Below are positions 1,406 through 50,800 of a stretch of 64,000 bases of DNA, piece by piece. The first letter of the stretch is position 1; every line of letters starts with the position of its first letter. Source of the stretch: Nemertoderma westbladi (taxonomy: Eukaryota > Animalia > Xenacoelomorpha); contig JAUCBJ010006371.1 in assembly GCA_032718475.1 (NCBI GenBank), forward strand, positions 40,395-104,394, read 5' to 3'. The notes below the pieces were generated by a model. The model saw nothing but the letters and a program-made list of their open reading frames with translations. It had not been told where the DNA came from and made no database searches. The position numbers and the translations under genes are program-made.

Positions 1406-1845
1406 TGCTCACAGCAGCTAGGGCGTGAAGTGTATAAGGCGTGGCATGGGTTATTTTTCAAACATTTAAAAGGTTGCTGAATTTCACATTTTTGGAAAAC
1501 AGGAAGAAAGGTTGTGCAGATAGAATAATTTATATTTAACCGGGTGCCTAAGTAGGCCTTGTTATGTTAGACATGGATGACAGTGTAGTCGTAATTATGT
1601 TATTTTTGTCCCGATAATTATAAGATAAATAATCATATTATTCCTCGAGAAAAATAATATTTTTTATTATTTTATATTTTTTGGTGAAATCTCTCAAATT
1701 TTTATTGTACGTATCGATAGAGTACCGAAGTATAGCAAATGTTTGAACCTGATTTGAACAAATTAATCAACACACTCTAAATTTTAAAAATATTTTGGTT
1801 ATCGGACAACCAGTCCTGTAACTTCCATTCATTTCTATTTTCCAG

Positions 1846-4800
1846 ATGATCCATCAGCTAGCAGCTCGAGCTCTTATTCGCGATTGGGAACAGGGGTTGC
1901 TTGGCAACACAGCTGTGGAACACGAGTCATTGAAAATGACAACAAAATCGACAATTATAGAACTCAGCCAAATCTATCAAATAGTCACGGAATTTACTAG
2001 CTTTATCGCTGTTGAGAAAAGAGAAAAAGTTAGTCGTAATCTATTAGTAATGTATTGTGTTATTGTTATATTTTATATTTTTTTAACTGTTTGTTTCTGT
2101 GGAATTTCTAATAATTTGTACCTCGCCTTAATTTTCCAATTTCAAGGGGTTTTAATTAACAAATGAGATTTTACAATTGTAATATTGTATTTGTAACCAT
2201 TACGTATTTACAGGATGAAGTATTTGACAGCTCTGCTGGTCCAGATATGTTCGAGTTATTGGCGATTGAGGACGTGGACAGTCTGAAGTATATGGGATGG
2301 ACTGAAGGGGACCCCGAACCAGAAGATATAGCCGATATAATATTCGACCCCAACGATGTTATGGATGCGGCTTCTGCCGCTGAGACTATAGGCGGTCTAA
2401 TTAAAGATGCAAAGGTATTTTAATATTTATTAGCTAAATAACTTTGTTATGGGATCAACTAATGGTTCCTTATTTATTTTAGTTTAGTGATATGATTTGA
2501 TTCTTTTAAGATTTCTCAGGAAACCAAAATAATATATTCAATTACTAAGGGGGCAGGCATTTTGTTCGTGTTTCATCAATGCATTTAAATATTGCGTCCA
2601 AATTGTCAAATAACAGAATTACCCTGGATCACAATTTGTGCCATTCGATTTTGCATCTCGCTAACAGTCTTCCACATTTTGATGCGTCGCTATCGACACA
2701 TCTACTTATTATTCAAGTTGCGTCACATTAACTCCATTTTATTATATTCTTAATCGTATGTAATTAATTATCACAATCCTTTAAAAATGATATATTATTA
2801 TATTTTAACTGCTAGGTAGCCGAATCTTCCAATATAAAGGAAGCGGAACGCGCATACCGTGAGGCAATGGAAGCTTGCGATAATATTATTGGAGATGAAT
2901 TACTAATGAAACCGATTGCAGTAAAGGCATTCCTCGATAGCAAAATAGCCTGGTTGCGGTTTCTTATCAATTTCAAGAAAGAAGAGGCCTCAACTATAGA
3001 GGGTATCGTCGAGGCTTTCGATTGGCTATCGCAGGTTGACATGGATGAAATCCCAGAGGATCATCGAGGCGATTACTTCGAGTTAATAGACGATGCCGTT
3101 TGTGAGTTAGGCGAGCTCGGATTTTGGGAGTTGTTGTGTGATTTGGTTGGAACTGAAGAACGCCTTGACATAAACGTTCATTTTGGAGAACTGGTAGAGT
3201 CGATGAAGAAATTCTCCCTACCGGTAGGTGTTAGGCATCTACTCGATGCTTCTCTAGAACTGTGTGAGGAACAGAAATCTAAGGCCTTAGAGGAATTGGG
3301 CCATGATTATAGTACAAGTGCGTCTTCATCTTCTCTTGATGAGGGGGAGGATGATGATAGAGATGTTTGTGAGTGTTACGATCCTGATCTCACAGGATCT
3401 TCCAGCTACTCCGACGTTGATGAGGCCGTCGCCCCGATTGTTATGGATCTCGGCGGGTTTACCGTCAAGGCGGGATTCGCGGGATACGAGAAACCCTCGG
3501 TGACGGTTCCTACGGCGGTGGGGCGTCCCAGACACCAGGGCGTCATGGTCGGAATGGGTCAGAAGGACAGCTACGTTGGTTCCGAAGCCGTGGGTAGCGT
3601 GCCTTCGGTAGGGAAGGTTCTACCGGAAACCGGTAATTCCGTGAAGAAGAAGAAGAAGAAGGCACGGGTAGTATCGAATGAACCGGTGTTCAACTTGCAG
3701 CGAGAAGTCGCCGAAAAAGCGCCAATTTATACAGAAATAGCGAGGAGGCGGATTGCAGGGGAAGGTGGCGGTTTCGGTGGCGGTGGTGACAAGGGGGCGT
3801 CCTTCAAGGAGGCGCCGATAACAGACTCAAAGGAATTGGGGGTCTCTGAAATTATCACTGGTTCATTATTTGGTGCGTCGAATAAAATGATGGTGCAAGC
3901 CGTTCCATCCAAGCGTTTGTCAACTTTGAATGCCGCGGCGGCCCCGCAGCAATATTCGCAAAGAACCTACAAATTTGCGGCAGCACCACCGGCACCACCT
4001 CCACCAGGACTTCCTGCGTCATTCGGACCACCACCATCTCAATCTCCAACATACAGTGCAACATCACCTATATCACTAGGATATGGTGCACCACCGTATT
4101 CTATTGCAGCCGCAACTTATGGCACGCCACAAGCATCACCATTTATTTCTGCACCTAGACCGCCAGCACCTCAGCAACACTCCATATTATTTGGTGCACC
4201 ACCTGCTCCATCACGACCACTACATCAACCTCCTCCTCCACCTGCACGCAAATCATTTCTACTCGGTGCCCCTCAAGCACTACAATATGCTTCACATATA
4301 GGATGGCGTGCAGAACCACAACCTTCCTTTACATTCGGGGCACCAATACCATCATCAGCTCCGCTCCCGCGGGCAAGAGGTGGAGCATTACCTCAATCAC
4401 AAGATTTCGCTCCATCACCGCCCAAACCGGCTCCAGTACAATCCATCACACAACCGCCCTCGCCCCCGCAAGCCGCTACCAAACCTGAATATTTCTGTAA
4501 TATTTCGAGAGCTAAGCGAGTAATTACAAGTAAATCAGTGGTGGATAGGAAAGCCAGCGAAATTACATCAGCGATGGATGCAGAAGAATTTGGAGGACTT
4601 AGAAAGACGACGTCTAGTGGGATTAAGCCATCGTGGAGATCTGTACCTACCCCTGGGGGTAACTTATTGATGGCCGCCGATTATGTTCCTTTCGCAGCCG
4701 AAATACCCCAGCGAGTTCTATTAAAGAAATCGACGGATCGCGATGCCGTGGTCCTACCTGCAGGAGGTAAAAGGATTCCGGTACCATCGGGACGTGGGGG

Positions 4801-7331
4801 TTCGCGTCGGTTCGCCGCCCCTGTCGTCCCCCGACCGTCCATGCGGGTCTCGGATTTCAACGACGAGTTACTAATGGCGAGGAATACGATGTCTCTAGAT
4901 GATGAAGATGAGTTGATGGCCGAACTGGATGAGATGGAAGAGGATGGCGACGACGAGTGGGACGACGGAAGTCCAACTCTGTACGATACCGGGTTTAGCT
5001 ATATAGACATGGCTCTCTCTAAGAGTGACCCCGCGGTTCCCAGTATATGTGTAGCACAGCAACTAAAGGCTCTCTGGGAACTCCAAAATAGTGAGGGTTA
5101 TTGGGAACTTTCAGTAGAAGTCGGCGAACTGATTGATATACCGTGCCACCAGATTCTGGCTAATCTAGTTGACGCCGGCCTAATGTCGTTAGGTAAGTTT
5201 ATGAATAATTTGTTTTGTTTATAATACATTTAGACGCTACCGCCAACCGACCATCGATATGTCCGAGACAGACCGACGATATGTCCGACAGACCGACGAT
5301 ATGTCCGACAGACCGACGATATGACCGACAGACCGACGATATGTCCGACATACCGACGATATGTCCGACATACCGACGATATGTCCGACAGACCGACGAT
5401 ATGTCCGACGATATATCCGACGATATGACCGACAGACCGACGATATGTCCGACATACCGACGATATGTCCGACAGACCGACGATATGTCCGACGATATAT
5501 CCGACGATATGACCGACAGACCGACGATATGTCCGACAGACCGACGATATGTCCGACAGAACGACGATATGTCCGACAGACCGACGATGTGTGCGACAGA
5601 CCGACGATGTGTCCGACACACCGACGATATGTCCGACAGACCGACGCTATGTCTGACAGAGCGACGATATGTCCGACAGACCGATGCTATGTCCGACAGA
5701 CCGACGATATGTCCGACAGACCGACGATATGACCGACAGACCGACGATATGTCCGACATACCGACGATATGTCCGACATACCGACGATATGTCCGACAGA
5801 CCGACGATATGTCCGACGATATATCCGACGATATGACCGACAGACCGACGATATGTCCGACATACCGACGATATGTCCGACAGACCGACGATATGTCCGA
5901 CGATATATCCTACGATATGACCGACAGACCGACGATATGTCCGACAGACCGACGATATGTCCGACAGAACGACGATATGTCCGACAGACCGACGATGTGT
6001 GCGACAGACCGACGATGTGTCCGACACACCGACGATATGTCCGACAGACCGACGCTATGTCTGACAGAGCGACGATATGTCCGACAGACCGATGCTATGT
6101 CCGACAGACCAACGATATGTCCGACACACCGACGCTATGTCCGACAGACCGACGATATGTCCGACAGACCGATGCTATGTCCGACAGACCGACGCTATGT
6201 CCGACAGACAGACGATGTGTCCGACAGACCGACGATATATCCGACAAACCGACGCTATGGCCGACAGACCGACGATATGTCCGTCCGATCGACGATATGT
6301 CCGACCGACCGACGATATATCTGACAGACCGACGATATGTCCGACAGACCGACGATATGTCCGACAGACCGACGATTTGTCCGACCGACCGACGATATGT
6401 CCGACAGACCGACGATATGTCCGACAGACCGACGATATGTCTGACAGACCGACGATATGTCCGACAGACCCACGATATGTCCGACAGACCGACCGTCTCC
6501 CGTCTGACGATACGTCCGACAGACCGACGATATGTCCGACAGACCGACGATATGTCCGACAGACCCACGATATGTCCTACAGACCGACGATATGTCCGAC
6601 AGACCGACGATATGTCCGACAGACCGACCGTCTCCCGTCTGACGATACGTCCGACAGACCGACGATATGTCCGACAGACCGACGATATGTCCGACAGACC
6701 GACGATATGTCAGACAGACCGACGATATGTCCGACAGACCGACGATATGTCTGACAGACCGACGATATGTCCGACAGACCCACGATATGTCCTACAGACC
6801 GACGATATGTCCGACAGACCGACGATATGTCCGACAGACCGACCGTCTCCCGTCTGACGATACGTCCGACAGACCGACGATATGTCCGACAGACCGACGA
6901 TATGTCCGACAGACCGACGATATGTCCGACAGACCGACGATATGTCAGACAGACCGACGATATGTCCGACAGACCGACGATATGTCCGACAGACCGGACC
7001 GTCTCCCGTCTGACGATACTTCCGACAGACCGGTTATTTTCCGATTATTTCTGTTCCAGGTATTCGCACAACGGACTCGACTACGAGATTCGTTGCCACA
7101 CTGTTCGTCCTTCTTTATATATCGAACCTGGATGCTTTTCTCGACGGTGTTGACCTCACGGTCGCTGACCTTAAAAATCTAAAATTCCTCATTGTCAGTG
7201 ACTTTGAAGGTCGTCTTGGTAAGGCTGTTGAATTTGTTAAGAAGATTAATGGAAGTTTCCCATTGGTTCTTACCAGTTTGGAATTGGGACGGAATATTCC
7301 TGAGTCTTTAGATATGATAGTCGCAGAATAA
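1846..7331 (+). CDS. PARP4: PARP4 / vault poly(ADP-ribose) polymerase-like protein, 3' part (5' exons lie outside the window)
   Basis: Exons 1846-2028, 2214-2414, 2816-5192 and 7060-7331(TAA) have GT-AG junctions and compatible phases. [17 protein letters not shown]...[15 protein letters not shown] and [11 protein letters not shown] match the post-VWA region of PARP4. [13 protein letters not shown]...GLMSLG|IRTT...[11 protein letters not shown]...AVEFVKK...LELGRN matches the C-terminal MVP-interacting domain. Confidence 0.88.
5250..7031. repeat. 20-bp minisatellite (GACCGACGATATGTCCGACA) filling nearly all of the last PARP4 intron (5193-7059), with a ~408-bp higher-order duplication
   Basis: Visible tandem unit. 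The pattern of variant units recurs at a 408-bp offset (e.g. 5361 vs 5769). Confidence 0.95.
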
Positions 7332-15092: not shown

Positions 15093-18000
15093 CTATAACG
15101 CCGTTTCTTTTTTGTTATTAATAACAAAAGTGTAGTCAAGGGCTGACGTTGCTAGTGGAATTGAGGTCTTGATAGGAGCGGCGATGTCCCCATTGGTTGT
15201 CACCTTGGTAATCGCAATGTCGTCGCAAGCCTCGTAAAATTTTGAATTATCAAAGAAATTCGCCTGTGTGGAGGCGTTTGATTGGTAGGGGAGAGGGGAC
15301 CCTTCGCAGGACCAATCAGGGATCGAGGATTGTCCGGACCAGCGTCTATCCCGCAACCCTATAACCTCATTGGTCGATGAGTGTGACATAATCTCCAGTG
15401 ATTGGTCCTTAGGTTGTGGGTCTGGGGGCGCGAGTAGGGGGGAATCCGATAGCTTGCCGACTACTCCGTTACGCTTGGGTTTATTCAGCGAGCGGGATAC
15501 CAAACTCAACATCTGTTGTATCTGGCGTTCGTGCCGTGTGAGTCGCACGGACACCCCGCTGTCGCTGTCCACGCCCCCGAGATGGGGCGACTCGCGCGCC
15601 GGCGGCCGGATCTCCCGGAGTACCGCGGAGAGATTCGACGGAAGACTCTGTTTTATTCTCTCATCGTCGCTGAACGCGCCGCTGTACGCGGAACCCCGCT
15701 CCAACGACTCGGGAGTCACTTCGTATTTCATCGACTTTTTATCGGAAGCCGATTTGCTCTTAGTAATTGTATTACTATCTCCCGCTCTGGGTGATTTATT
15801 AGCGAGACAATGGGTGGAGGTGGATGTCAATTGCCTCGATGTCCCTCCCCTGTATTCCCCTATCAATAGGTCTAGCATGCGGCTCTGTGCCGACAGCGAG
15901 GCGCAGACACCAACCCCGGGGTTCCGAGACAACGATCTACTAGAGCAGCGGGGTTGCGCGACTACTGGCGGTTGAAGCGTCGCATCCGATATCTGTACCC
16001 ATAGATCGTCGGGAGTTTTTATTTCAGTTGTGGGATTTGTTTCGGGATTTTGGGTGTCTGGCAAGACGTTCAATATATCCTCAGTGCGTGGTGGCCCCCT
16101 TCCGTTGTGTAACTGAATCACTCTCGGGTTTGCACCGAAAGCCACTGCATTATTCTCTACAGGGGAAAATAAGAGTTTCTTTTTCATTTTTCGTGTTTTG
16201 TTGATAACATTGCTGCCGAGTTTACAGAGCTCCTGGCGCAAAGAGGAATGTATTTTACCACCACTAGAGGGTTGAATGTCCTGGTCTATGATGGATATGG
16301 GGGAGTCGCCTTTACTGGATATAGAAAGAGACCGGGGGATGCCGGTGATTGGTGGGGGGAGACCTCCGCAGCTGCTCCCTGAGGTTGAGCAACTGAGCAC
16401 GTGATTGGTCCGCGGTAGGTCGGGGCTACGGGAGGTAGACAAGGGGGGTCGGTCGTTAGGCAACGGGGGTTTACCGGAGGGACCCAACTTATTGCACACG
16501 ACGCCGTTAGGGGTCGTATCTTCGAGAGGTTTGGAATCCTTCGAGGCGACTTCGTTGTCGGAGACCCCGGAGGAAGTATCGTTGGCCCGAGTATCGGTTG
16601 CTAAGGAAACCGGTACGCCGTAAGTGGCCAGTAGACGGACTATATCAGTGTGGCAACCTTTGAGCGCGAGTTTAAGAGGAGTTCGGTTGTAGCGGTCGGC
16701 GTGGTACGGGTTGGCCCGGTAGGCCAGGAGGGTAGCGACAACGTCGCGATGGCCTTCCTGGGCCGCGATACACAAGGCCGTCGTATCCTGGTTGCAGCAG
16801 TGGTCTATACGGGCCCCCTGGTTGAGCAGACGACCCACTATGGCGGCGTGACCCTGCCACGCAGCCGCCTGCAACGGGCTGCGTCGTTCCTTGTCGCAAG
16901 TGTTGGGCCGCGCGTGGTATTCCAGTAAGAGATTCACCATGGCCGTGTTGCCCTGCCAACAAGCGACGTGGAGTGGAGTCCTTCCCTGGTTGTCCTGACA
17001 CTCTACGTAGGCGTCGTTATCCAATAGGAACCGGGTCATCTGTAGCCGATTCTCTAGGGCCGTCATGTAGACTACCGATCTACCGTCACTGTCCCGCTGG
17101 TTGATGTTGGATCCCTTCATTAGGAACAGGTTGACCAGCTGGAAGTGGCCCTCCAACGCGGCAACCCGTATCGGCGACTGTTCCCCCAGGTCCCGGTGGT
17201 CCATCTTCGCTCCTCGGTTAATCAGCATCTTGCACGTGTCGATGTGGCCCTCGGAAGCGGAGAATATCAGCGCGGTTCGACCTTCCATGTCCGTGTCATC
17301 CACATTGGCGCCAGCGTCAATGATCGTTTGACATACCTGAATAGATAAATAATAGCGAGGTGTTATTATTACGATGGCATTAACAATTACACGATTTGAT
17401 CAATGTCATAATGCAGTGTATAGTACAATGCATAACTAATATTCAAAAAATTTAACATTATTTGATCTAGTTAAGTGAATTATTGGGTTAGATAATACTA
17501 TTGAGGAGAAGAAAACAGAAGATGTACGATGTCTGTTTTGCGAGCAGCTAGACAGTGGTTCCTGTAACTAATGACTTGTTGTGCGAACATTGATGGTGAC
17601 AACGGTTATTCCCGGGGGATCCCAAACTGTTCCACCTCCTGCTGCCATACACCACGAATCCATCCTGCATTCCTGCATCTCAAGGATTATTCAGGTTTTC
17701 CTTCAGTTGTTGGTTACTGATGTGTGTATGTTGATATGGTGCCGATATGATGTGTGTATGTTGATATGGTGCCGATATGATGTGTGTATGTTGATATGGT
17801 GCCGATATGATGTGTGTATGTTGATATGGTGCCGATATGATGTGTGTATGTTGATATGGTGCCGATATGATGTGTGTATGTTGATATGGTGCTGATATGA
17901 TGTGTGTATGTTGATATGGTGCCGATATGATGTGTGTATGTTGATATGGTGCCGATATGATGTGTGTATGTTGATATGGTGCCGATATCTAACTGAGGGT

Positions 18001-21000
18001 AGGGCTGTACAGAAAGTGTAGCGTGGTTTATCTGCACTCGGGGGTATACGAACTTTTAGGCGCCCCCACCTACACACCCATATGTTAACAACGCCTCTGG
18101 GACTGTTAAAAACAGAGGATTCAATTAAGAAAATTTAACATTACTTAACTACATTAACTTCAGCTTAATTAACTTAACATAACTTCAGATAAACCTCTCC
18201 TGTCGCCATGTGACTATGGGAAGACAAAGTGCCGCGGTGTCAATACCAACGGGTTTAATTGAGAATTTAACATTGATGCGGGATATTAATTCGCCAAGGC
18301 GGGTTTTGCGTCGAGTTTCCCCCCTGTCTCTTCGGATCAGTACTTAAGGTTCTTAACAGCATTTGAGTGCCATTTAATTAATACGTTTAATGTTTATTGG
18401 TTTGATGGTAGCCGCGCGCATTAAACCAAGAATAGGTGAACCAATTTGATAAAGTAGCAATGGTTATCATATATCAGGCCAGACGTTAAGGTTCCTCACA
18501 TTATTATTCACAAGGTGTTATTTGCCATGGGGAAGTTAAGTTGCTCGGAATGTGTGACGAATTGTGGCGTTAATAACCCAAGTTGTAAATGAGTTGGATC
18601 TTCTAATCTGACTGCATATGGTGTCCCGCTGTCATCTAATCGTTTTCTGTCGCAAAAGCGTCTTTCATCACCACAGGGGGAGAGAGATACATGTGGTGAT
18701 AAAAACACTGGCCATATGGTTTGGTTTAGTTAGAATTACAACACATAATGTACTCTTGGAATATTTTTGATGGGAATTTGCCTTACCAGAATAGAATACT
18801 AAACTTATCATGTCACTTCAATTCTCCATCAGCCACCTTTGTAAATATATTGGGTGGCAATATGCGAAGCAGACTTTGCTGAGCTGTTCTAAAAAATAAC
18901 TAATTTACTTCATGGAAAATAATATAATGTATCGCTTATATGATTACATCAAGTTTTCTTTGAGACGGGGTGTAACCCGGATTTTCAATGAAACTTAATA
19001 CTGGAATTATTTTAATTAATTATTTTGCTTCACGGTTTACACATCTCATATTTATTTTATTTTAATAAACAATTATTTGTCGAAGAAATATTAATCTTAA
19101 ATAACCATCTTCTCCAACCTCCTGCCTTTTGCCAATCATATTGGGAGGGGGGGGGGGGGGGGGGGGGTGCTTGGGTTTGTCACAAAAAAAATGTGAAAAA
19201 TGTTTCAATTTCCAGGACATTATTTCAACCTAAAACAATATGAAACTGTCCATGTGAGTACAGTACAATTTTAAACGGTTGCAGTTTTATTTTTTGGAGT
19301 AATCAGCTGTTATTTGCATCGATTTTCCCCGGGAGAATGATTAATTTTTATTGCGTCAAGACAAGAGTCCCCCATGCCCATATCTATACTTACCAGTTAT
19401 GGCATACTTAAAATGTGTGGCGTTAAATTAAAACCAGCGTAGTAAATTTACTAGTTCGAAATTTAATTATATACCGTTTAATTTTTCGCTACATATTTTG
19501 GTGCATTTAATTGCGATCGTAAATGCTTAGCTAGAATTTAACGAGAACAAATGCCAAGAATCACTCCCAAACAACATAAATTGAATTATATTGCTGGTAA
19601 AGTTGACAGCTTCGTACACTTATCTGGAACTTACTTGTGACATCAATTTGGCATCAATTCTTTAACTTGCATATAATGGGATTTCAGAATTATTGCGATG
19701 GGTTAGGGTGTAAAATGCGTTTAACGCAAGAATGCGGGTGGATTTGGGTAGATGTTTTCAATAATACGTGTTGTAATGTAATATAATGTAATGTATATGT
19801 TTACAATAAACGGTATATTCAGAGACGGGTTCGGAGGGGGGGGGGGGGGGGGGGGGGGGGTGTATCCATACAACCTACCTTTGTATATCCCTCACGGTTG
19901 TCCCCCGGTTGTCCCACTCAACCCACCTTTATATGTCCCGCGCGGTTGTTCCACTCAACCCACCTTTGTATGTCCCTCACGGTTGTCCCCCGGTTGTCCC
20001 ACTCAACCCACCTTTATATGTCCCGCGCGGTTGTTCCACTCAACCCACCTTTGTATGTCTTTCACGGTTGTCCCCCGGTTGTCCCACGCAATCCACCTTT
20101 GTATGTCCCGCGCGGTTGTTCCACTCAACCCACCTTTGTATGTCCCTCGCCGAAGTCCCACTCAACCCACCTTTGTATGTCCCCCACGGTTGTCCCCCGG
20201 TTGTCCCACTCAATCCACCTTTGTATGTCCCACGCGGTTGTCCCACTCAACCCACCTTTTGTATGTCCATCGCCGAAGTCCCACTCAACCCACCTTTGTA
20301 TGTCCCTCACGGTTGTCCCCCGGTTGTCCCACTCAATCCACCTTTGCATGTCCCATGCGGTTGTCCCACTCAACCCACCTTTGTATGCCCATCGCCGAAG
20401 TCCCACTAAACCCACCTTTATATGTCCCTCACAGTTGTCACCCGGTTGTCCCACTCAACTCACCTTTGTATGTCCCGCCCTGTTGTCCCACTCAACCCAC
20501 CTTTGTATGTTCATCATGGTTGTCCCACTCAACCCACCTTTGTATGTCCCTCACGGTTGTCCCCCGGTTGTCCCACTCAACCCACCTTTTTTATGATCCT
20601 CAGGGTTGCCCCCCGGTTGTCCCACTCAACCCACCTTTGTAAGTCCCACCCTGTTGTCCCACTCAACCCACCTTTGTATGTCCCTCACGGTTGTCCCCCG
20701 GTTGTCCCACTCAACCCACCTTTGTATGTTCCTCAGGGTTGCCCCCCGGTTGTCCCACTCAACCCACCTTTGTATGTCCCACCCTGTTGTCCCACTCAAC
20801 CCACCTTTGTATGTTCCTCAGGGTTGTCCCCCGGTTGTCCCACTCAACCCACCTTTGTATGTTCCTCACGGTTGTCCCACTCAACCCACCTTTGTATGTT
20901 CCTCAGGGTTGTCCCACTCAAGCCACCTTATTATGTCCCTCCCAGTTGTCCTACTCAACCCACCTTTGTATGTCCTTTCCAGTTGTCCCACTCAACCCAC

Positions 21001-24000
21001 CTTTGTATGTCCTTTCCAGTTGTCCCACTCAACCCACCTTTGTATGTCCTTTCCAGTTATCCCACTAAACCCACCTGTGTATGTCCCTCCCAGTTGTCCC
21101 ACTCAACTCACCTTTGTATGTTCCTCAGGGTTGTCCCACTCAAGCCACCTTATTATGTCCCTCCCAGTTGTCCCACTCAACCCACCTTTGTATGTCCTTT
21201 CCAGTTGTCCCACTCAACCCACCTTTGTATGTTCCTCACGGTTGTCCCAATCAACTCATCTTTGTATGTCCTTCCCGGTTGTCCCACTCGCACTCAACCC
21301 ACCTTTGTATGTCCCTCACGGTTGTCCCACTCAAACCACCTTTGTATGCCCCTCACGGTTGTCCCACTCAACCCACCTTTGTATGCCCCTCACGGTTGTC
21401 CCACTCAACTCACCTTTGTATGTTCCTCACGGTTGTCCCAATCAACCCACCTTTGTATGTCCCTCACGGTTGTCCCACTCAAACCACCTTTGTATGCCCC
21501 TCACGGTTGTCCCACTCAACCCACCTTTGTATGTCCCTCACGGTTGTCCCACTCAAACCACCTTTGTATGTTCCTCACGGTTGTCCCACTCAACCCACAT
21601 TTATATGTCCCACCCGGTTGTGCCACTCAACCCACCTTTATATGTCCCTCACAGTTGTCCCACGGTTGTCCCACTCAACCCACCTTTGTATGTTCCTCAT
21701 GGTTGTCCAACTCAACCCACCTTTGTATGTCCTTCCTTTCCAGTTGTCCCACTCAACCCACCTTTGTATGTTCCTCACGGTTGTCCCCCGGTTGTCCCAC
21801 TCAACCCACCTTTGTATGCCCCTCCCAGTTGTCCCACTCAACCCACCTTTGTATGTTCCTCCCGGTTGTCCCACTCAACCCACCTTTGTGTGTCCCTCCC
21901 AGTTGTCCCACTCAACCCACCTTTGTATGTTCCTCACGGTTGTCCCACTCAAGCCACCTTTGTATGTTCCTCACGGTTGTCCCACTCAACCCACCTTTGT
22001 ATGTTCCTCCCGGTTGTCCCACTCAACCCACCTTTGTATGTTCCTCACGGTTGTCCCACTCAAGCCACCTTATTATGTCCCTCCCAAGTGTCCCACTCAA
22101 GCCACCTTTGTATGTTCCTCACGGTTGTCCCACTCAACCCACCTTTGTATGTTCCTCACGGTTGTCCCACTCAACCCACCTTTGTATGTCCCTCCCAGTT
22201 GTCCCACTCAACCCACCTTTGTATGTTCCTCCCGGTTGTCCCACTCAACCCACCTTTGTATGTTCCTCACGGTTGTCCCACTCAACCCACCTTTGTATGT
22301 TCCTCACGGTTGTGCCACTCAAGCCACCTTATTATGTCCCTCCCAAGTGTCCCACTCAAGCCACCTTTGTATGTTCCTCACGGTTGTCCCACTCAACCCA
22401 CCTTTGTATGTTCCTCCCGGTTGTCCCACTCAACCCACCTTTGTATGTTCCTCACGGTTGTCCCACTCAAGCCACCTTATTATGTCCCTCCCAAGTGTCC
22501 CACTCAAGCCACCTTTGTATGTTCCTCACGGTTGTCCCACTCAACCCACCTTTGTATGTTCCTCACGGTTGTCCCACTCAACCCACCATTGTATGTCCCT
22601 CCCAGTTGTCCCACTCAACCCACCTTTGTATGTTCCTCCCGGTTGTCCCACTCAACCCACCTTTGTATGTCCCTCACGGTTGTCCCACTCCACCCACCTT
22701 TGTATGTCCTTTCCAGTTGTCCCACTCAACCCACCTTTGTATATCCCTCCCAGTTGTCCCACTCAACCCACCTTTGTATGTTCCTCACAGTTGTCCCACT
22801 CAAGCCACCTTTGTATGTCCCTCCCAGTTGTCCCACTCAACCTACCATTGTATATTCCTCACGGTTGTCCCACTCAACCCACCTTTGTATGTTCCTCACG
22901 GTTGTCCCACTCAACCCACCTTTATATGTTACTCACGGTTGTCCCACTCAACCCACCTTTGTATGTCCCTCCCAGTTGTCCCACTCAACCCACCTTTGTA
23001 TGTTCCTCACGGTTGTCCCACTCGCACTCAACCCACCTTTGTATGTCCCTCCCAGTTGTCCCACTCAACCCACCTTTGTATGTTCCTCACGGTTGTCCCA
23101 CTCAACCCACCTTTGTATGTTCCTCACGGTTGTCCCACTCGCACTCAACCCACCTTTGTATGTTCCTCACAGTTGTCCCACTCAAGCCACCTTTGTATGT
23201 CCCTCCCAGTTGTCCCACTCAACCTACCATTGTATATTCCTCACGGTTGTCCCACTCAACCCACCTTTGTATGTTCCTCACGGTTGTCCCACTCAACCCA
23301 CCTTTGTATGTTCCTCACGGTTGTCCCACTCGCACTCAACCCACCTTTGTATGTTCCTCACAGTTGTCCCACTCAAGCCACCTTTGTATGCCCCTCCCAG
23401 TTGTCCCACTCAACCTACCATTGTATATTCCTCACGGTTGTCCCACTCAACCCACCTTTGTATGTTCCTCACGGTTGTCCCACTCAACCCACCTTTGTAT
23501 GTTCCTCACGGTTGTCCCACTCAACCCACCTTTGTATGTTCCTCACGGTTGTCCCACTCGCACTCAACCCACCTTTGTATGTTCCTCACAGTTGTCCCAC
23601 TCAACCCACCTTTGTATGTTCCTCACGGTTGTCCCACTCAACCCACCCTCCCAGTTGTCCCACTCAACCCACCTTTGTATGTTCCTCACGGTTGTCCCAC
23701 TCAACCCACCTTTGTATGTTCCTCACGGTTGTCCCACTCGCACTCAACCCACCTTTGTATGTTCCTCACAGTTGTCCCACTCAAGCCACCTTTGTATGTC
23801 CCTCCCAGTTGTCCCACTCAACCTACCATTGTATATTCCTCACGGTTGTCCCACTCAACCCACCTTTGTATGTTCCTCACGGTTGTCCCACTCAACCCAC
23901 CTTTATATGTTACTCACGGTTGTCCCACTCAACCCACCTTTGTATGTCCCTCCCAGTTGTCCCACTCAACCCACCTTTGTATGTTCCTCACGGTTGTCCC

Positions 24001-27000
24001 ACTCAACCCACCTTTGTATGTTCCTCACGGTTGTCCCACTCAACCCACCTTTATATGTTACTCACGGTTGTCCCACTCAACCCACCTTTGTATGTCCCTC
24101 CCAGTTGTCCCACTCAACCCACCTTTGTATGTTCCTCACGGTTGTCCCACTCAACCCACCTTTGTATGTTCCTCACGGTTGTCCCACTCAACCCACCTTT
24201 GTATGTCCCTCCCAGTTGTCCCACTCAACCCACCTTTGTATGTTCCTCACGGTTGTCCCACTCAACCCACCTTTGTATGTTCCTCACGGTTGTCCCACTC
24301 AACCCACCTTTGTATGTCCCTCCCAGTTGTCCCACTCAACCCACCTTTGTATGTTCCTCACGGTTGTCCCACTCAACCCACCTTTATATGTTACTCACGG
24401 TTGTCCCACTCAACCCACCTTTGTATGTCCCGCCCAGTTGTCCCACTCAACCCACCTTTGTATGTCCCTCCCAGTTGCCCCACTCAACCCACCTTTGTAT
24501 GTTCCTCACGGTTGTCCCACTCAACTCACCTTTGTATGTCCTTCCCGGTTGTCCCACTCGCACTCAACCCACCTTTGTATGTCCCTCACCGTTGTCCCAC
24601 TCAACCCACCTTTGTGTGTCCCTCACCGTTGTCCCACTCAACCCACCTTTGTGTGTCCCTCACGGTTGTCCCACTCAACTCACCTTTGTATGTCCTTCCC
24701 GGTTGTCCCACTCGCACTCAACCCACCTTTGTATGTCCCTCACCGTTGTCCCACTCAACCCACCTTTGTGTGTCCCTTACCGTTGTCCCACTCAACCCAC
24801 CTTTGTATGTCCCTCCCGGGCTGCCAGGTGTAACCCCGTCATCCCGTTGTTATCCCGTTGCGATCCATTTATCCGCCGATCGAGCAGCGCGTTGACCACA
24901 TCCAGACTCCCCTGGATGGCCGCCACACCGAACACGAATCTCCCCTCGCCGTCCACCTTATCGTTGGCGGCACCGCGATCCAACAGGGTCGCCACCACGT
25001 CAGCGTGTCCCATCGACGCGGCGGCGAGTAACGAACTCCGTCCGTTGTTATCCGTTCGATTGATATCGGCTCCGCGGTTCAGTACCGACTCGACAACGGG
25101 GTTGAGTCCCTCGTAGGCGGCGAGTAGCAGCGGACTCATTCCGTCTGCGTCGACCTGATCGACAGCGGCGCCGCGGTCCAGGAGGGAGTCCACGATCCGG
25201 TGGTTCATAGCGTGGTGGCTGAGCGCCGCCACAGACAGGGCCGTGCGGCCGTCGGCGTCCGCGTGTCCCAGACGGGCGCCTGCATCCAGCAGCACCCCCA
25301 CCACCGCGGGACGGCCCATATAGGCTGCGGCTATGAGCGGGGTTCGACCCTCGGTGTCGCTGCTGTTAGCGTCCGCCCCCGCCGCTAGCAGCCGCTCAAC
25401 CGCGGTCACGTGACCCGCCCAGGCCGCCGCTCGCAACGCCGTACGTCCGTCGCGGTCCGCCGTATCTACCACAGCCCCGTTGCTCAGAAGCAACTCAATG
25501 ACGTCATCGTGACCCCCCCAGGCGGCGGCCCGTAACGCGGTCCACCCCTGATCGTCCTGTTTGTCCACGGCGATCCCGTTCGCGATGAGCAGCCCCGCGA
25601 TCTCGCCGTGCCCCCGATTGGCCGCCAGATGCAGCGGGTTGTCCCCGGCGGAGTCCGCCGTATCCACATTGGCTCCCCGCTGGAGGAGTAACTCAACGAC
25701 CTCCAGGTTACCCGCGAACGCCGCGTTGCACAGCAACGTGCGCCCGTTGTCGTCCATCTCGTTGACCATGGTGCCGCTGTCCAACCGCATCGCCATGGAG
25801 TTTATGGGATCCGGACACTCGGGTCCCGGGTTCGACCCCCCCTCAGCACCGGGGAGTTTCGCGCCGCACTGCAACAACATGCTGACAACCCTGTCGTCGT
25901 GGTAACGAGTTTGCAGACAGTCGGCGACAGGGCCGCCGGACCACAGCAACCACATGGGTATATGTAGGTCCCCGTCGAATGGGAAATCTATCTGTGATTC
26001 TAGCAAATCGTAACAGAGCGATTGGAGTTGTTTGTGTTCTAGAATGTCGATGCTAAGTGTGGCGTCGCCCCTCAGTGTGGCGTCCCCCCTCAGTGTGGCT
26101 GCCATCGCGAGCATGGCGTGGCCTTCCCGTTTGTGGCACAGATACTTGGGGGTGCAATGCTTCACGTCTAGCAGCCACTCCGCGAAACTATTGTGGAAGA
26201 TCTGTATGTTCCCATGGTGGGTTGTTTGTGTGACGAGTTTGAACACGGAGTCCATGAGTTTGTCGAAGTGTGGGCGGGTGAGTGAGGTGTTGCGAGACGA
26301 GACTGCTATGAACAGTAGGTCGGGGGAGACGGGAGACTGACAGGCGAGCAGCACGTTGAGTAAGGGCTGCACACGGGGAAAATGTTTCCTCGGGAAGATC
26401 CTGTTGCAGAGCCACAAGTAGAACCCGTTGAGAGTCCCGGGGATGTCCCTGATGTCTTGGAGACTAATAAACCGATCGCAGACCCCATCCAATACCTTCT
26501 CCAAGTAGAGAACACAGCCGTTACTCTTAATCAACAGTTGGTTTAACATTTCCGCGGTTTCTTTGCTCAACTGCCGTCTCAATGTCTCATCTTTATCCAA
26601 TCGCGTTAGAATGTATTGCTGAATGTCTTTGACAACGTTGGATTTACGCAGATCGTCGAGGGTGATTTTCCTGAAGCCGCTGAACAATCGGGAGATGTGT
26701 TTCGTGTGGCGTCGGGATGTGCACACTAGGAGTAGCCACGGTGGCAGTAGGTTGTAGTGGGTGGCTAAGAGTTCGGCGATGCTACGACTTTGATTGGTTT
26801 GTTGCACGGAACCAGATGAGTTGGATCCCAAGGGTTGGTTCCCCAGGGTACACTCATCAACCCCGTCTATAAGAAGGAAGCAGTTTCGCGTGGGCGGGTT
26901 TAGAGTGAGCAATGGAAGTAGGACGCCGGATCTAAAAGCCTCGTCCACGTTTTTAGCGCATTCGGTGGGTTCTAGAAGGGCTTTAATACTGGGTTCAGAT

Positions 27001-27329
27001 ATTTTACCTGAGTACCCGTGAATTATAGGGGATTTACACAGGGAAGCCACTAAATACTGTATGAAACCGACCACCGACAACGTTTCGCGCTCTTGGCTGT
27101 GGCAGAACCAAGCGGCCAATAGACGTCGACTCAGCGCCCTCTGGCGGCTGTAGTTGGAAGTAGGTGTCGCGATCTCGGAACACAGGGCGGTCTTCCCGCT
27201 TCCGGGGCCACCCATTATCACGGTGCCGCTACTGCGACAGGAAGGTCGGCTTTCTACGACGTGGAGGATTTTCTGGAACACCCATTCTCGGCAAAAAAAC
27301 CGTTTGCCTTGCAGAGAGCAGGAAGACAT
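15093..27329 (-). CDS. ANKRD50: Ankyrin repeat domain-containing protein 50 (P-loop/NACHT-like NTPase + ankyrin repeats + PDZ-binding tail)
   Basis: Exon 1 27329-24801 has LQGKRFFCREWVF, Walker A GGPGSGKT, Walker B LLIDGVDE and ankyrin repeats, ending AAREGHTK|gtgggt. Exon 2 17336-15093 starts cag|VCQTIIDAGANVDD, has more ankyrin repeats and ends KKETAL, like the vertebrate KKETPL. The phase-0 join completes an ankyrin repeat. Confidence 0.92.
17717..17988. repeat. 30-bp minisatellite (TGATGTGTGTATGTTGATATGGTGCCGATA), ~9 near-perfect copies, in the ANKRD50 intron
   Basis: Directly visible tandem unit. Confidence 0.95.
19870..24820 (-). repeat. ~5-kb 37-bp minisatellite whose unit spans the ANKRD50 exon 1 / intron donor junction
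   Basis: Sense unit CCGTGAGGAACATACAAAG|GTGGGTTGAGTGGGACAA. The first unit is the true exon end (REGHTK) plus donor at 24801/24800. Confidence 0.95.
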
Positions 27330-38738: not shown

Positions 38739-40489
38739 CGTTAAATTTGTCTACAGTGATATGGTAATGTTTATTTGTGACCAATAGTGTTGTCGAGGTT
38801 GTTGAGAAATACAACTTTATTTTTATACTAGAATAACCATTTGAATTTCTACTATATTTTTTGCGATAAAATAAATATGGCAAGAGATAAGGTTTGCATT
38901 AATTAGTAAGTTGAATTCGTTCATTGCAGTTTGTCCAACCAATATAGATAATGCAGCAGTTTAAATTTCAAAAAGCATCTCAAATTGTTTTACTGAATAG
39001 GCGGCTAATACTTTGAAGAAGCCGCATAATGCTAATTTCCCAGGATATTTAAGTTTATTCGGTTGATGACCCCTTAAACTCATGTTCTAATTACTTGAAA
39101 AAAAGATTAGGATTAATTAACTTTAATGCCAATGTATTGTAGGCCGCACGTTCTGTACGTTTATTTGCCGTGCCGAATCCGCGAATCGCGTTTGTTCTTG
39201 ATATCTTAATAATGGTGGTGATGAAAGGTTTTAATTTAGTACCGATCACTTAGTAAGGAGTTTACGGCAGCCATCAAGGCTCATAATGATATCCGAAAAG
39301 AAGCGACTTATAAAGCATCACATGTGAAAACATGTGCATCTTGGTAACGCGCATTATCTTGTCAGGTATTTACTTTTCGTTCGTAATTTTATTGAAGTTT
39401 ATGACGAATACGTATTTGTAAAATATATTTAAAATCTTTTTAAATTTATTTTTTAAATCGTACGATCCACACCTCCATGCATGGTCACGCTTCCGCCTTC
39501 CACAAACCTACGTTGGTGGGGGTGCGTGGGGGGCAGGTGCATATGCGTTCCCGTAGATCAGAGAACACCTTGTCTGTGATTGCTCTGTGACTAACAACCA
39601 TCAAAGCGATGGTGCCTACTGCGTCTTTGTCAATTCTGGACATCCATCAGTAAATGTGTACTTCTAGAAACAGCTTTGCTGCAATATAATTGACGCGGCA
39701 CGTCAATTATGACGCGCCTCACCGACAGTGCCGCCGGCACTGTCGGCAGCATTGACTGTCAAGCATTATTATACTGTTCACAAAATTACGAAATACTTTC
39801 ATTGCGTTCGTTTTTTCTAACAAAGGCTCTATTTATGTGAAATTAAGATTGAAGGCCTACTTTTTTATTCGGACGTCCCTTCGTCATTCGTCCCATTATC
39901 TAGAACCCTCGACCCAATATGTTTATTTATTTATCTTGAGTTTATGAGTTTGTTGTGGGCCATCGCCACATTACTGCATTAATTCGGTCATAATTATGCA
40001 AACTTTCTGTATTTGCTAGGAACAAATATCTAAAGTACTTTTAGTCAAAGCTGTAAGCCTATACTACACACAGACTGTCGGACACACTACAGTACTACCA
40101 GAGACTACTGAGTACAGGAGTAGGCCTACTGAGCTACGGTAGGTATATAATAATAGCTGCACTGATTTGACTGCGATAGGCACCGTCTGACCGGTACTGC
40201 GGTATGCACCTTCCACAGTCTGCGGTCTGAGAGTACAACTAACAGTGCAGTTGCAGAGTTGGTTATATCGTGTTTCAGCTTCAGGGCCTCATTTTATTTA
40301 CCTGTTTCTGTGTTTACCGGTCTGCCACTGGCTGACTGGCGGTGTCTTCCGTTGTCGTTATACAGTGTACTCTACTCAGTACTGGTACTGCAGTACTGGT
40401 GTACCGATTTCCGCCTCACTTTGCACTTTACTGTCAGTCCGGTAACGTCGCACCTGCTGACTGTCAGACTGTAGGACTGTCTGATACAA

Positions 40490-41737
40490 ATGAGAGAGAG
40501 AATGACAAGCACTGACACCCGAGAACTTAAACTGGATGGGCATGTCGGTTTCGACAGCTTACCGGATCAACTCGTCAACCGTTCTGTCGCCCAGGGGTTC
40601 TGCTTCAACATCCTCTGCATCGGCGAGACAGCGCTGGGCAAGTCAACCCTCGTAGACACCCTTTTCAACACCCACTTCGAGAGCGAACAATGCTCCCACA
40701 AACTCCCCAAAGTGGTTATTAGAGCGGCTTCGCACGACCTTATAGAGAGCAATGTCCAGCTGAAACTAACTGTGGTTGATACGCAAGGGTACGGCGACCA
40801 GATAAACAAAGAGAACAGTTACAAACCCATAGTTGATTACATCAACGAGCAATTTGAGAAATATCTTCAGGAGGAGTTGAAGATCCAACGCAATATGTTT
40901 AGTTTCCACGACACCCGTATTCACATGTGTCTCTACTTTGTGAGTCCCTCTGGCCACGGCCTAAAAGCCCTCGATTTAATTACTTTGAAGAAACTGGACA
41001 GCAAGGTGAACATCATCCCACTTATAGCGAAATCAGACACAGTTTCTAAGAACGAGTTGCACAAATTTAAGATAAAGATTATGAGTGAGTTGGTTTCTAA
41101 CGGAATCCAGATCTACCAGTTCCCAACCGACGACGACAACGTTGCCGAGCTCAACTCCCAGATGAACGGGCATCTCCCATTCGCCGTGGTCGGAAGTATC
41201 GACGAGATCAAGACGGGTACCAAGACCGTCCGCGCGCGTCAGTATCCCTGGGGCGTCGTTCAGGTCGACAACGAAGCCCATTGCGACTTCGTTAAACTCC
41301 GCGAGATGGTGTTGCGCACCAACCTCGAGGACCTGCGAGAGTCCACGCACACCCGGCATTACGAGTTGTATCGCCGCTGTCGACTGCAGGAGATGGGATT
41401 CGCCGACTCCACCGGTGATAAAAACTTCTCTTTGCAGGAAACTTTCGAAGCTAAAAGACAACAACATTTGAAGGAGTTGCAAAACAAAGAGGACGAAATG
41501 AGACAGAAGTTTATAGTTCGTGTTAAAGAAAAGGAATCCGTGTTGAAACAGAACGAGAAGGAATTACACGCGAGGTTCGACGCTATTAAAAAGGAACACG
41601 CGGAAGAGAGGCAACGATTGGAAGAGAAGAAACGCATTCTGGAAGAGGACATGGCGAGCTTCCAGAGACGCAAGGAGGCTGTGCGACAAGCGCAGGAAGC
41701 GGCTCATGCCGCCTCCTTAAAGGGGAAGAAGAAATAG
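40490..41737 (+). CDS. Septin, SEPT6/8/10/11 group (single coding exon)
   Basis: [14 protein letters not shown]1 GETALGKS, G3 DTQG, G4 AKSD, septin unique element ARQYPWG...[10 protein letters not shown], and a C-terminal coiled coil. Confidence 0.95.
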
Positions 41738-47821: not shown

Positions 47822-50800
47822 TCAATTGAATTCATCGTCACTGTGATCAAAAACCTCCCCGGTTCTGGAGAGCATATAATTATCCATGTCGATACTCTTA
47901 CAGTTGTTAATAGCGTAGCGCAGTCGGTTGGCCAGCATCCCCTGACTCGAGTAGGACGGCAACCTGAGTTGGAAGAAACAAGTCTGCGCCGTAGGCAGCG
48001 AGTCCAGTTCCCGATCCACTCGGATTATCTGAAACCGCTGACTGATATCCGCGATGTTGACGGGAAGACGCGATCTCCCGGAAACGAATCGCATAAATAA
48101 AACCCGTTCGTCGTTGTTAAACTCCGTCAGCGTCTGCCAAAACCACAGGATCAAGTGATGACCTTCTGAGAGCTCGCGGTAACGGACAACAGATTTCAAC
48201 ATGTCCAACGAGATATCGGGGACGCCGCAGACCAAACGTTCAATGTACGCGGAAGTGACCAACGAGAAGAGAGGAACCGGCACTATCCAACTCATCCCGA
48301 GACGCACCGCGGCTACCTGTCGATCCATCTCGTGCAGGCGATAGTGCAGCACCCTCTCGACGTACTCCTTGCGGTTGTGGTAGGTGAGCGGGATGCTGTG
48401 GCCCCCCGGGACCACGGGCACAAACTCTCCGGTCGCGCTCTGCCCCTCGAAGGAGTCCAACGGAATCACCTCGGAGAAGGAACTCGCGGTGACTCCGCTC
48501 CGATCGATGCCGGAGACGCTCCGCAAACTGCGGATGTACATCGGGTCAACTTCCTCCAAGTCCTCAACGGAAACGTTCATACCCGCCAACTGCTTCCAAG
48601 TCAGTTTGGCTAAATGTAGATCGATGGGTTTCTTGGTTCGTATGGCGACGCCCAATAAAATTCCGAGGAATTTAAACATCTGTAGATCTTCCTCGGTGGA
48701 TAACGCCGGATTCAATAAATACTTGTCGCGGAAGTTACCGGGGTCGGCCAGCGAGTTAGGAGTTGGGATTAGTATGTTGAGGTCACCGCGATGCAGTTCC
48801 GAACACATCTCTGTCATGGTATCATCGAACACCCCCCCAGCGTCGTCAGCACCTTCTCCTTGCAGTTTCACCTTCCATGCGCGGGACGGCAGTCGTAAAT
48901 CATCAGCTTTCAACGACAGTATCTGCCGGGCCAGTTGTACGAAAATCGGCTTGGCCTTCCGACCTCGGGGCACCAGCCGCCTCACAGTGACCTGCGGCCC
49001 GTAACTCCTTCCCTGCACCATGGTGCGCCCGATTGCGCGCACTGAAGGTAGTTGGTAGACCCGGGGCGCCAACAGTGGGCGCACTGTGCCACCGATCAGA
49101 CCCCCGACGGTGTAGGCCCGCTCTAAAGACGGATCCAAATCTGACTGCAGACACATGAAACGCCAACTCGCCGAGACTAGATCAGAGAAATGTAACAGCG
49201 TTCGCAGTCTAGAACGGATAGACTCGATGGGAATGTCTAATAGGCATGTGTACTGCTGGGGAATGGATTTGGGCAAACCGAGGAGGATTGGCGTGGCATA
49301 GCCCCGCCGTATCGGGCTGGGCGGTGGAGAAGTCCAGGCCGCACTGTGGGTTCGGCCAGCGGCTATCTGACGGATACCTTTCCCACTGAGCGGCGCGATA
49401 AGCACCGGTTCACGTTGGAATGCCACGTGGCCCAATCCCAACTGGCCGTCCGAGTTGTTTCCCCACGCCCAAATGTTCCCGTTGGAGCACAATACTAGCG
49501 TGTGATCGGCGCCCACAGCGATATCCTCCACGAAGGAGTTGAACAAGGCAGGAATTTGTTGAGGTTTATTTTGAGTTCGACTTCGACCTTCAGTAACCCC
49601 GGTGAATCTCTCCTGTCCGAAGGAGAAAACCCTCCCGTCTTTAGTGAGAGCGACGGTAAACTGAGTTCCACAAGCCAGCTTCTTGATTCCTTGATTCTGG
49701 AGAGTTTCTATTCGATGAGGAGTCGATTTCGCTATAGAGTTACCCAATCCCAGCTTGCCATAGTCCCCGTCACCGCAGGCCCACACGGTCAATCCATCTT
49801 GGCTGCAACACACCGTATGGTTGAGACCACAGACAACCTGGCCAACTTGTTGACTGACTAAGGCTTCAATACGTTCGGGAGTTTTCTTATTGGCCGTTCC
49901 GCCATGTCCTAATCTTCCATAGTCACCGTTACCAAACGTGAATACACTACCGCTAGATGTGGTGACAGCGCTATGTTTAAACCCACAAGCCAAATCAACA
50001 ATATCTTCCCCTCGGAGCGCTTCAATCTGCCGAGGTCTCCTCTGCCTATCACTATTACCGTGGCCCAACTTCCCGTAATCACCGTCACCCCAGCTGAAGA
50101 CCTCGCCACTGTCGGTCAACGCTAACGAGTGACCGTCAGAACCACAAGAAGTGGCCAGTTTCACAACCACAAATCCCTGAAGAGAGGATACTGCAGTCAG
50201 TGTGTAAAGGTCATCAGAATTACCTTGTCCGAGTCGACCATAGGACCCCTCACCACATGCAGAAACTGTGCCGTTTGACTGTATTGTAAAGGTACAATTT
50301 TGACCGCATATTAATTGTTGGGCATTAGAAAACAAAGCACGCTGAGTGGGTAGTGTCATAGGACCCATTGATGTGGATTCTGCGAGCTGCCCGTGCCGAT
50401 TATCCCCCCAAAGATAAACATCTGACTTACCACCAATCATCCATTCCTCCGGGTGCTTACTGGACCATTGCATTATTTGTTCATCCATCTGCAGTGTCCA
50501 TATGCTGTTGTCCAATGGACTCTTGCCTCCTTCTGAGATGCGCTCAAGGAAAGGCACATGAAATGTTGATGGAAATGGTTTTCTATGAGTTAGAGAATCG
50601 CACGCGGAAATACAAGTAGCCAGTTGGAACAGCCACGCGAAATCCTTATGATCATCAACTGCGTCATGGGCTAATTGGTGGGGTGGCTTTCTTGGTTTCC
50701 CTATAATTTGATCGAGGCGTAAACTCACAGCGATAGTGCACAGCGATTTAAAATAATCGGTGTGAGTGAGTTGGTCCCCTGATGTAATTAAGTTTTTCTC

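Follow-up and report, generated by a model that had tools for sequence, protein, structure and literature searches.

An actin fragment with a conserved DNase-I-binding loop is an ancient unit of the PARP4 linker, a putative strip of host-protein baits

A 64,000-nucleotide stretch of the Nemertoderma westbladi genome (assembly GCA_032718475.1, contig JAUCBJ010006371.1, positions 40,395 to 104,394; hereafter the window) carries part of a PARP4-type gene, and inside the large linker exon of this gene lies a short, in-frame fragment of actin. Why should a vault-associated ADP-ribosyltransferase contain a piece of actin? The first-pass annotation of this locus proposed that the fragment is an integrated decoy for effectors that attack actin. 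Here we report that the actin piece is a real, ancient and selected feature of PARP4, that pieces of other host proteins, in sets that vary with lineage, occur in the same linker in non-vertebrate holozoans, and that these pieces may together serve as baits for microbial effectors.

Positions 3419-3589 of the forward strand encode the 57 residues originally described, within an open frame of 802 codons (2816-5224). The segment aligns without gaps to residues 2-58 of actin (E = 5e-18 against actins of the PDB; E = 2e-9 for the Pfam Actin family) and the flanking exons match PARP4, confirming the in-frame position of the fragment in a PARP4 linker exon. Identity to actin is unevenly distributed: residues 35-55, which contain the DNase-I-binding loop, match at 21 of 21 positions as first noted, residues 8-34 are 41% identical, and the sequence corresponding to residues 59-70 is unrelated. 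With residues 2-58 alone present, the piece lacks the four-subdomain nucleotide-binding fold of actin (approximately 375 residues). The phosphate-1 loop, previously called destroyed, is altered at residues 12, 14 and 15 but retains D11, G13 and K18. An AlphaFold2 model of low overall confidence (mean pLDDT, the per-residue confidence score, of 60) places three strands at fair confidence (block pLDDT 65-82) in the diverged first half, residues 2-34 (3419-3517, forward strand), and predicts the loop part (3518-3589, forward strand) to be flexible and unstructured (pLDDT <50). The first half may form a small scaffold that presents the loop. A three-strand scaffold with conserved core residues has thus been retained alongside the loop, and the earlier view that only the attacked loop was kept does not hold.

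The locus is physically sound. The region 1800-5200 is contained in a single contig in each of three sequencing runs, X1 and X2 from one sample, possibly the source, and the near-identical X3 from another study, all of which behave as DNA; the actin piece is no assembly chimera. A fourth run, X4, is labelled 'DNA?' yet behaves as RNA: the introns are gone from it, it is joined at GT..AG sites (2028>2214 and 2412>2814), and one of its loose ends continues into the last exon at 7063. One X4 record (record 7, 3204-3512) crosses the 5' border of the actin piece and another (record 10) covers 3577-4414; among the X4 records listed, none spans the loop, which is crowded by very deep actin contigs in this run, and no joint skips the piece. 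We conclude that the piece is very probably transcribed. Both alternatives considered at the outset, an assembly chimera and a recent neutral insertion, fail as explanations: the DNA contigs are intact, and the loop is kept across holozoans above the level of its scaffold. Two kinds of sequence difference were also recorded along the gene. At 5109, a single base is missing from one X4 contig but not from the DNA runs; this deletion would shift the frame in the MINT (MVP-interaction) region and is either an allele or an error. Small intronic indels separate the window from short-read contigs at 2488, 2707 and 2709.

To establish how widely the piece occurs, PARP4 orthologues were searched with residues 1-290 of the exon, a query that favours intact loops. 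Of the 56 long proteins recovered, 39 were PARP4 records with the same actin piece, from Capsaspora, sponges, cnidarians, an acoel, a flatworm, molluscs, crinoids, hemichordates and a tunicate; the fusion suggested by the first-pass annotation therefore recurs from Capsaspora to tunicates. An actin-independent recount used PARP4s found by the anchor on the vWA side alone, taking the best 120 of 283 records (92 non-vertebrate, 28 vertebrate); these include isoforms, near-duplicates and truncated models, so the counts are not species frequencies. The piece is present in 33 of the 92 non-vertebrate records and in none of the 28 vertebrate ones. It comprises both halves with an intact loop in 32 of the 33, the remaining piece, from Amphiura, ending after residue 41 in what is probably a truncated gene model. 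Across 23 genera, mean identity to coral actin is 0.60 over residues 8-34 and 0.93 over residues 35-55, the latter rising to 0.96 (minimum 0.86) once Amphiura is set aside. In a true but divergent actin the two values are the other way round (0.24 and 0.14 over 35-55 against 0.52 and 0.41 over 8-34; one protein in two copies, compared without gaps). Residues retained in the first half are D11, G13, K18, A19, G20, A22, G23, P27 and P32; N12, which follows D11, is lost in 27 of 28 aligned pieces, and no scored row retains G15. All 28 pieces still have G42 and V43, although this per-position table is circular for residues 36-50, its fragments having been chosen by loop pattern, and was replaced by the anchor-set identities given above. 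Because conservation is holozoan-wide and the loop is far better kept than the scaffold, we regard the piece as a selected element.

The extent of the piece differs between lineages. In Capsaspora, most sponges and most cnidarians it extends to about residue 70, with an ending common to them after residue 68; bilaterian copies, and the one in this window, stop at residue 58. BRCT, PARP, VIT and vWA domains were present in the 22 actin-bearing orthologues scanned, BRCT being missing only in two models with shorter N-termini, and the H-Y-E (histidine-tyrosine-glutamate) columns of the PARP domain, which we take to be the catalytic triad, are intact in 27 of 27 aligned orthologues.

Actin is not the only host protein represented. 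Pfam scans of 42 PARP4 records revealed linkers with a truncated C-terminal half of 14-3-3, ubiquitin, the linker and substrate domain of HSP70, the SNARE motif of VAMP, calmodulin-type EF hands, Snf7, WH2, PDZ, the acidic tail of ribosomal P-proteins (P-stalk), heptads of the RNA polymerase II C-terminal domain (CTD), and weak matches to FG (phenylalanine-glycine) repeats. These were counted in the anchor set with orthologue-built profiles, seeds being counted as hits and reversed linkers serving as the control, and with a pattern for CTD. In non-vertebrate and vertebrate records respectively, we found actin (33 and 0), 14-3-3 (31 and 0), ubiquitin (23 and 0), P-stalk (22 and 0), HSP70 (12 and 0), VAMP (8 and 0), calmodulin (6 and 0), WH2 (5 and 0), Snf7 (4 and 0) and CTD (23 and 2); none of the nine profile-scored pieces was thus found in the 28 vertebrate records. 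Patterns for polyproline, acidic-Trp, RS (arginine-serine) and poly-Lys did not rise above the reversed control. Actin contributes a second, distinct piece, its C-terminal tail, to 4 of 127 linkers and to no reversed control, and one linker, from Dreissena, contains a string that we label H3-tail-like. Truncation is the rule for several parents, 14-3-3 being represented by profile positions ~125-223, HSP70 by ~380-520, and VAMP by its SNARE motif without the anchor. A single linker can hold as many as six pieces, in a loosely kept order with 14-3-3 or ubiquitin first and HSP70 last, and WH2 and polyproline tracts accompany the actin piece in sponges. The content varies between relatives and between paralogues: one Dysidea record carries VAMP and actin and another Snf7, and Mytilus records carry either actin or calmodulin with Snf7. 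Among the 25 ubiquitin-positive records, 12 pieces keep the terminal GG motif, and in 9 of these (8 species) Pro is the next residue; Pro at this position blocks host deubiquitinases. With actin only one among ten or more candidate baits, specificity for anti-actin effectors, as first proposed, is not borne out.

Within the window, assignment of the gene to the PARP4 type rests on the stretch from the vWA-side anchor to the last exon, the PARP, VIT and vWA exons lying upstream of the window. All features are on the forward strand. The conserved anchor that follows the vWA domain occupies the exon at 1846-2028, which is 56% identical to residues 1130-1188 of coelacanth PARP4 (E = 7e-20) and is spliced in X4. 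The next exon (2214-2414), delimited by X4 GT..AG joints on both sides and by its translation, holds the end of the anchor and the start of the linker. The large linker exon (2816-5192), defined by its 802-codon frame and by X4 splice ends together with the sequence, corresponds by position to human exon 30 and ends in the start of the MINT domain (5048-5192; a weak match to coelacanth PARP4 1593-1615, E = 3e-6). X4 reads from a loose end after 5195 into 7063, linking the last exon (7060-7331), which contains the end of MINT and the stop codon and again matches coelacanth PARP4 weakly (residues 1689-1713, E = 7e-4). MINT is accordingly found where it is expected in a PARP4, after the large low-complexity exon, by weak matches at the right positions and a splice link.

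The exon of this window also contains two further remnants, of low score but each above all of 300 shuffles. At 2822-3052, where orthologues have a clear 14-3-3 C-terminal half, lies a degenerate one (8.7 bits with the orthologue-built profile, 0/300 shuffles as high; hhalign 62%, 0/100 shuffles). It is invisible to Pfam and PDB searches alone, and pairwise comparison with a single sequence (P0211, one of two tried) fails, 121 of 500 shuffles scoring as high. A short remnant resembling Snf7/CHMP4 (ESCRT-III) lies at 4862-4945 (7.0 bits, 0/300 shuffles), followed by an acidic Trp motif that is not significant; compared with two orthologue Snf7 pieces, the remnant was equalled by 0/500 and 3/500 shuffles, and its sole PDB match is CHMP4B, with a run of 9 identical residues (E = 7.3). 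Between the actin piece and this remnant is a proline-rich, low-complexity stretch (3983-4495) with one CTD-like heptad, which is not significant; a CTD repeat was rejected for this exon, 77 of 500 shuffles scoring as high. WH2 (107/300), the P-stalk motif (177/300) and a WASP-type VCA (210-284/500) were rejected on the same grounds. PDB searches with exon residues 1-195 and with the last 243 codons returned nothing significant, and a protein atlas search gave TPR-like leads alone, all below 0.8.

What, then, do these pieces do? We lean, at slightly better than even confidence and from sequence comparison, towards a linker that acts as a multi-bait strip, in which fragments of host proteins intercept microbial effectors for the vault. 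The actin piece, which lies after the VIT-vWA region and before the vault-binding domain, would belong to a modular strip whose members would be unable to do the parent's job but would keep the exposed surface that microbial enzymes recognize. Effectors captured by a bait would stay on vault-anchored PARP4, to be sequestered or ADP-ribosylated; those that cut the strip would free the N-terminal catalytic half from the vault wall, which could serve as an alarm. Capture is slightly favoured over release as the output, because some pieces look protected from cutting. Conservation concentrated on an exposed loop, and truncated pieces from unrelated pathways, are consistent with baits. The features expected of an integrated decoy are largely present: parent activity appears lost by anatomy (truncated actin, half of 14-3-3, a short Snf7), integrations at one hot spot vary between lineages, and the loop contains the Gly42-Val43 bond of actin that is cut by Serratia grimelysin, a known effector target (PMC7311988). 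The decoy idea of the first-pass annotation survives in that the linker is a string of host-protein pieces with a conserved loop; its loop-only and actin-specific parts are corrected here, and the coupling to ADP-ribosyltransferase activity that it proposed is weakened by protist proteins that carry the same piece but no PARP domain.

Several observations weigh against this proposal. The other pieces, actin aside, are labelled effector targets by our own assumption, and the argument that all of them are such targets is weak, because almost any core protein is targeted by some pathogen. The 14-3-3 half, the HSP70 substrate domain, PDZ, WH2, polyproline and calmodulin are ordinary ligand-binding modules too. 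The catalytic domain of this particular gene lies outside the window. Protist VIT/vWA proteins (Physarum, Anaeramoeba) that have no PARP domain carry the actin piece, ahead of a C-terminal domain that is MINT-like by eye, so the actin module may be tied to the VIT-vWA-MINT chassis and not to the enzyme. Third-position GC is 0.69 over the actin piece against 0.41 for the exon, a possible hint of refreshing from actin genes. Moreover, work on human PARP4, the only one for which residence in vaults is reported there, places the protein inside the vault lumen, which limits effector access, and finds that its loss changes vault cargo, as fits an adaptor (PMC12280208). The MVP residues that bind PARP4 are conserved only in the vertebrates of the alignment in that study, and vault anchoring in invertebrates is thus not assured (PMC12280208).

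The principal rival draws on the same adaptor evidence. The strip might be a docking site for the host, each piece recruiting the normal partners of its parent: the loop would dock on actin, actin-binding proteins or chaperones, and the rest would choose the cargo of the vault or the targets of ADP-ribosylation. The loop is a subunit-contact surface in the actin filament (PMC7311988), WH2 and polyproline tracts stand beside the actin piece in sponges, the vault interactome is altered by PARP4 loss (PMC12280208), and Perina et al. read the actin domains of PARP4-like proteins as a link to cytoskeletal organization (PMC4245714). The constancy of the loop over long times also fits a constant host partner. 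We nevertheless consider docking rather unlikely, if the most serious competitor, since sets of pieces differ widely between related lineages and paralogues, which housekeeping docking does not predict, and span translation, transcription, trafficking, proteostasis and the cytoskeleton; furthermore, the nine profile-scored pieces were not found in the 28 vertebrate records examined, and the vertebrate exon is reported to be under positive selection (PMC4038475).

Two further explanations dispense with both microbes and docking. The strip could sample the cell's own proteases, oxidases, kinases and ligases, tuning PARP4 and the vault to general damage. The surfaces it retains include several that we assume to be modification-prone (the loop methionines, the CTD heptads and the H3-tail-like string of Dreissena), and human PARP4 has a role in a death pathway triggered by damage (PMC13127586). 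Lineage-specific turnover, however, is unexpected if the enzymes sensed are fixed host ones. The Pro after the ubiquitin GG and the loss of N12 (27/28 pieces) also look like avoidance of host processing, as we interpret them, and we think such a stress sensor improbable. Alternatively, a permissive, disordered exon might collect retro-copied scraps of highly expressed genes by neutral processes, with the loop maintained by occasional gene conversion from actin genes. The donors are indeed all abundant housekeeping genes, the actin piece has an elevated third-position GC, one X3 contig whose loose end looks like an actin gene agrees with the loop at 35 of 38 bases, and the first half of the Actinia piece is 93% actin-like, which suggests a copy refreshed or newly inserted. 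Against this, neighbouring genes contain many windows in which third-position GC is just as high, and a 31-mer common to the loop and a host actin gene is unlikely, as the DNA contigs run unbroken through the loop. Position and in-frame integrity are the same from Capsaspora to tunicates, derived states are held in common (the replaced G15, and the ending after residue 68 in Capsaspora, sponges and cnidarians), and the loops carry substitutions at position 41 (M, I, R, K) that are absent from the animal reference actin. A single origin is not rejected (p-AU, from the approximately unbiased test, 0.69), a weak result from 66 columns, too few to show one origin. Neutral accumulation seems to us very unlikely, and we return to the multi-bait strip as the favoured reading.

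How does such a strip compare with known systems? Plant nucleotide-binding leucine-rich repeat (NLR) receptors with integrated decoys, and protease tripwires such as NLRP1, carry a nonfunctional copy of a host target within a larger protein, inserted at a hot spot whose content differs between lineages. By analogy PARP4 would be comparable, but on a BRCT-PARP-VIT-vWA-MINT rather than an NB-LRR chassis, with as many as six pieces and with a putative effector-triggered output; Pfam scans of the exon and the 42 orthologues found no NB-ARC or NACHT with LRR. The bait region of alpha-2-macroglobulin is an exposed, flexible stretch with many recognition sites in a cage-like trap. The PARP4 linker would likewise be an exposed bait stretch with the vault as cage, whereas PARP4 is cytoplasmic and has no thioester, and its baits are recognizable pieces of named host proteins; the scans of the 42 orthologues detected no A2M family, and the combination of macroglobulin domains with a thioester is absent. 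POTE-actin and other actin fusions join actin in frame to another gene as whole, recent retrocopies, unlike the PARP4 piece, which is ancient, 57 residues long and unable to form the actin fold.

Closer precedents concern PARP4 and the vault. Daugherty et al. 2014 described exon 30 of vertebrate PARP4 as its largest exon, disordered and under positive selection, and proposed that it recognizes pathogen factors for ADP-ribosylation or sequestration in vaults (PMC4038475). This exon has the same position as the invertebrate linker, before the MVP-binding domain, and differs in that the passages on it report no homology to other proteins and that it is fast-changing, whereas the putative invertebrate baits copy slowly changing surfaces (PMC4038475). 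Perina et al. 2014 reported actin or actin-binding domains in PARP4-like (clade 5) proteins of Capsaspora, Salpingoeca and Acanthamoeba, 14-3-3 in amoebae, lancelet, sea urchin and Capsaspora, and ubiquitin-related domains in Acanthamoeba (PMC4245714). There they are treated as whole appended domains tied to cytoskeleton or signalling, rather than as a piece of 55-65 residues with a near-invariant loop, and section 3.1.2 and related passages make no mention of a fragment nature, animal-wide spread, further pieces or a bait role (PMC4245714). Pfam hits to these pieces lie in public annotations; in the open-licence text of PMC and bioRxiv, we found no description of the fragmentary nature, animal-wide spread, wider piece set or bait role. 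According to a 2026 preprint, TEP1, a protein of the vault, contains a NADase domain of the antiphage type (10.64898/2026.05.01.722283).

Actin also occurs in other proteins recovered during these searches. Seven protist proteins (P0034, P0038, P0047-P0049, P0054 and P0056, one named Balamuthia) have a BRCT-TIG-DUF4062-NACHT-TPR architecture followed by actin, and in the two that were scanned this actin is nearly complete. A preprint describes DUF4062 as a TIR-like NADase (10.64898/2026.05.01.722283), and these proteins look like NLR-like receptors with an integrated actin. The PARP-less, protist-type VIT/vWA carriers are P0305, P0307, P0070 and P0176; in P0305, from Anaeramoeba, actin from about residue 43 onward comes first and a second, N-terminal piece later. 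Three bacterial open reading frames of 300-370 codons without Pfam match, on long contigs of metagenome-assembled genomes (L048:3242-4153, L050:3116-4162 and L051:3149-4246), carry only the D-loop (DNase-I-binding loop) segment of actin near the C-terminus, tandemly doubled in L051. Actin-length frames with a eukaryote-type actin start were found on long cyanobacterial or myxobacterial contigs (L001, L002, L031, L032, L038, and L039 with its match at 4001), and many other prokaryote actin matches, on short contigs, look like contamination.

Elsewhere in the window, a HERC1-like ubiquitin ligase (47822-58939, reverse strand) runs for 3705 codons in one frame with RCC1, SPRY, WD40 and HECT domains, and more RCC1 exons extend to ~62400. 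A NACHT-ankyrin gene of TANC/ANKRD50 type (15093-17399 and 24792-27329, reverse strand) is in two parts, separated by a region that contains 4.9 kb of arrayed 37-base repeats, and a septin gene (40475-41737, forward strand) occupies one open frame. Introns are packed with tandem arrays of 20-48-base units (1-1406, 5255-6996, 19899-24815, 60097-61437 and 62242-62968).

The function of the vault, and the part of PARP4 in it, is a decades-old open question (PMC12280208; 10.64898/2026.05.01.722283). A wider reading of these sequence comparisons, which we hold as plausible at a little under even confidence, is that PARP4 is an ancient cell-autonomous immune sensor, with the linker as an evolvable bait library drawn from the most attacked proteins and the vault as a trap, and that vertebrates swapped the baits for a fast-evolving disordered exon. 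If this is true, the bait list would be a readable record of the host surfaces attacked by intracellular microbes since before animals. Should the bait reading hold, integrated-decoy immunity would extend from plant NLRs to an invertebrate ADP-ribosyltransferase, and the positive selection on the same exon in mammals would be explained; should the adaptor reading hold instead, the strip would name the cargo-selection code of the vault. A linker of identifiable pieces supplies concrete ligands to seek in Hydra, Hydractinia, Nematostella, oysters, Macrostomum and Capsaspora.

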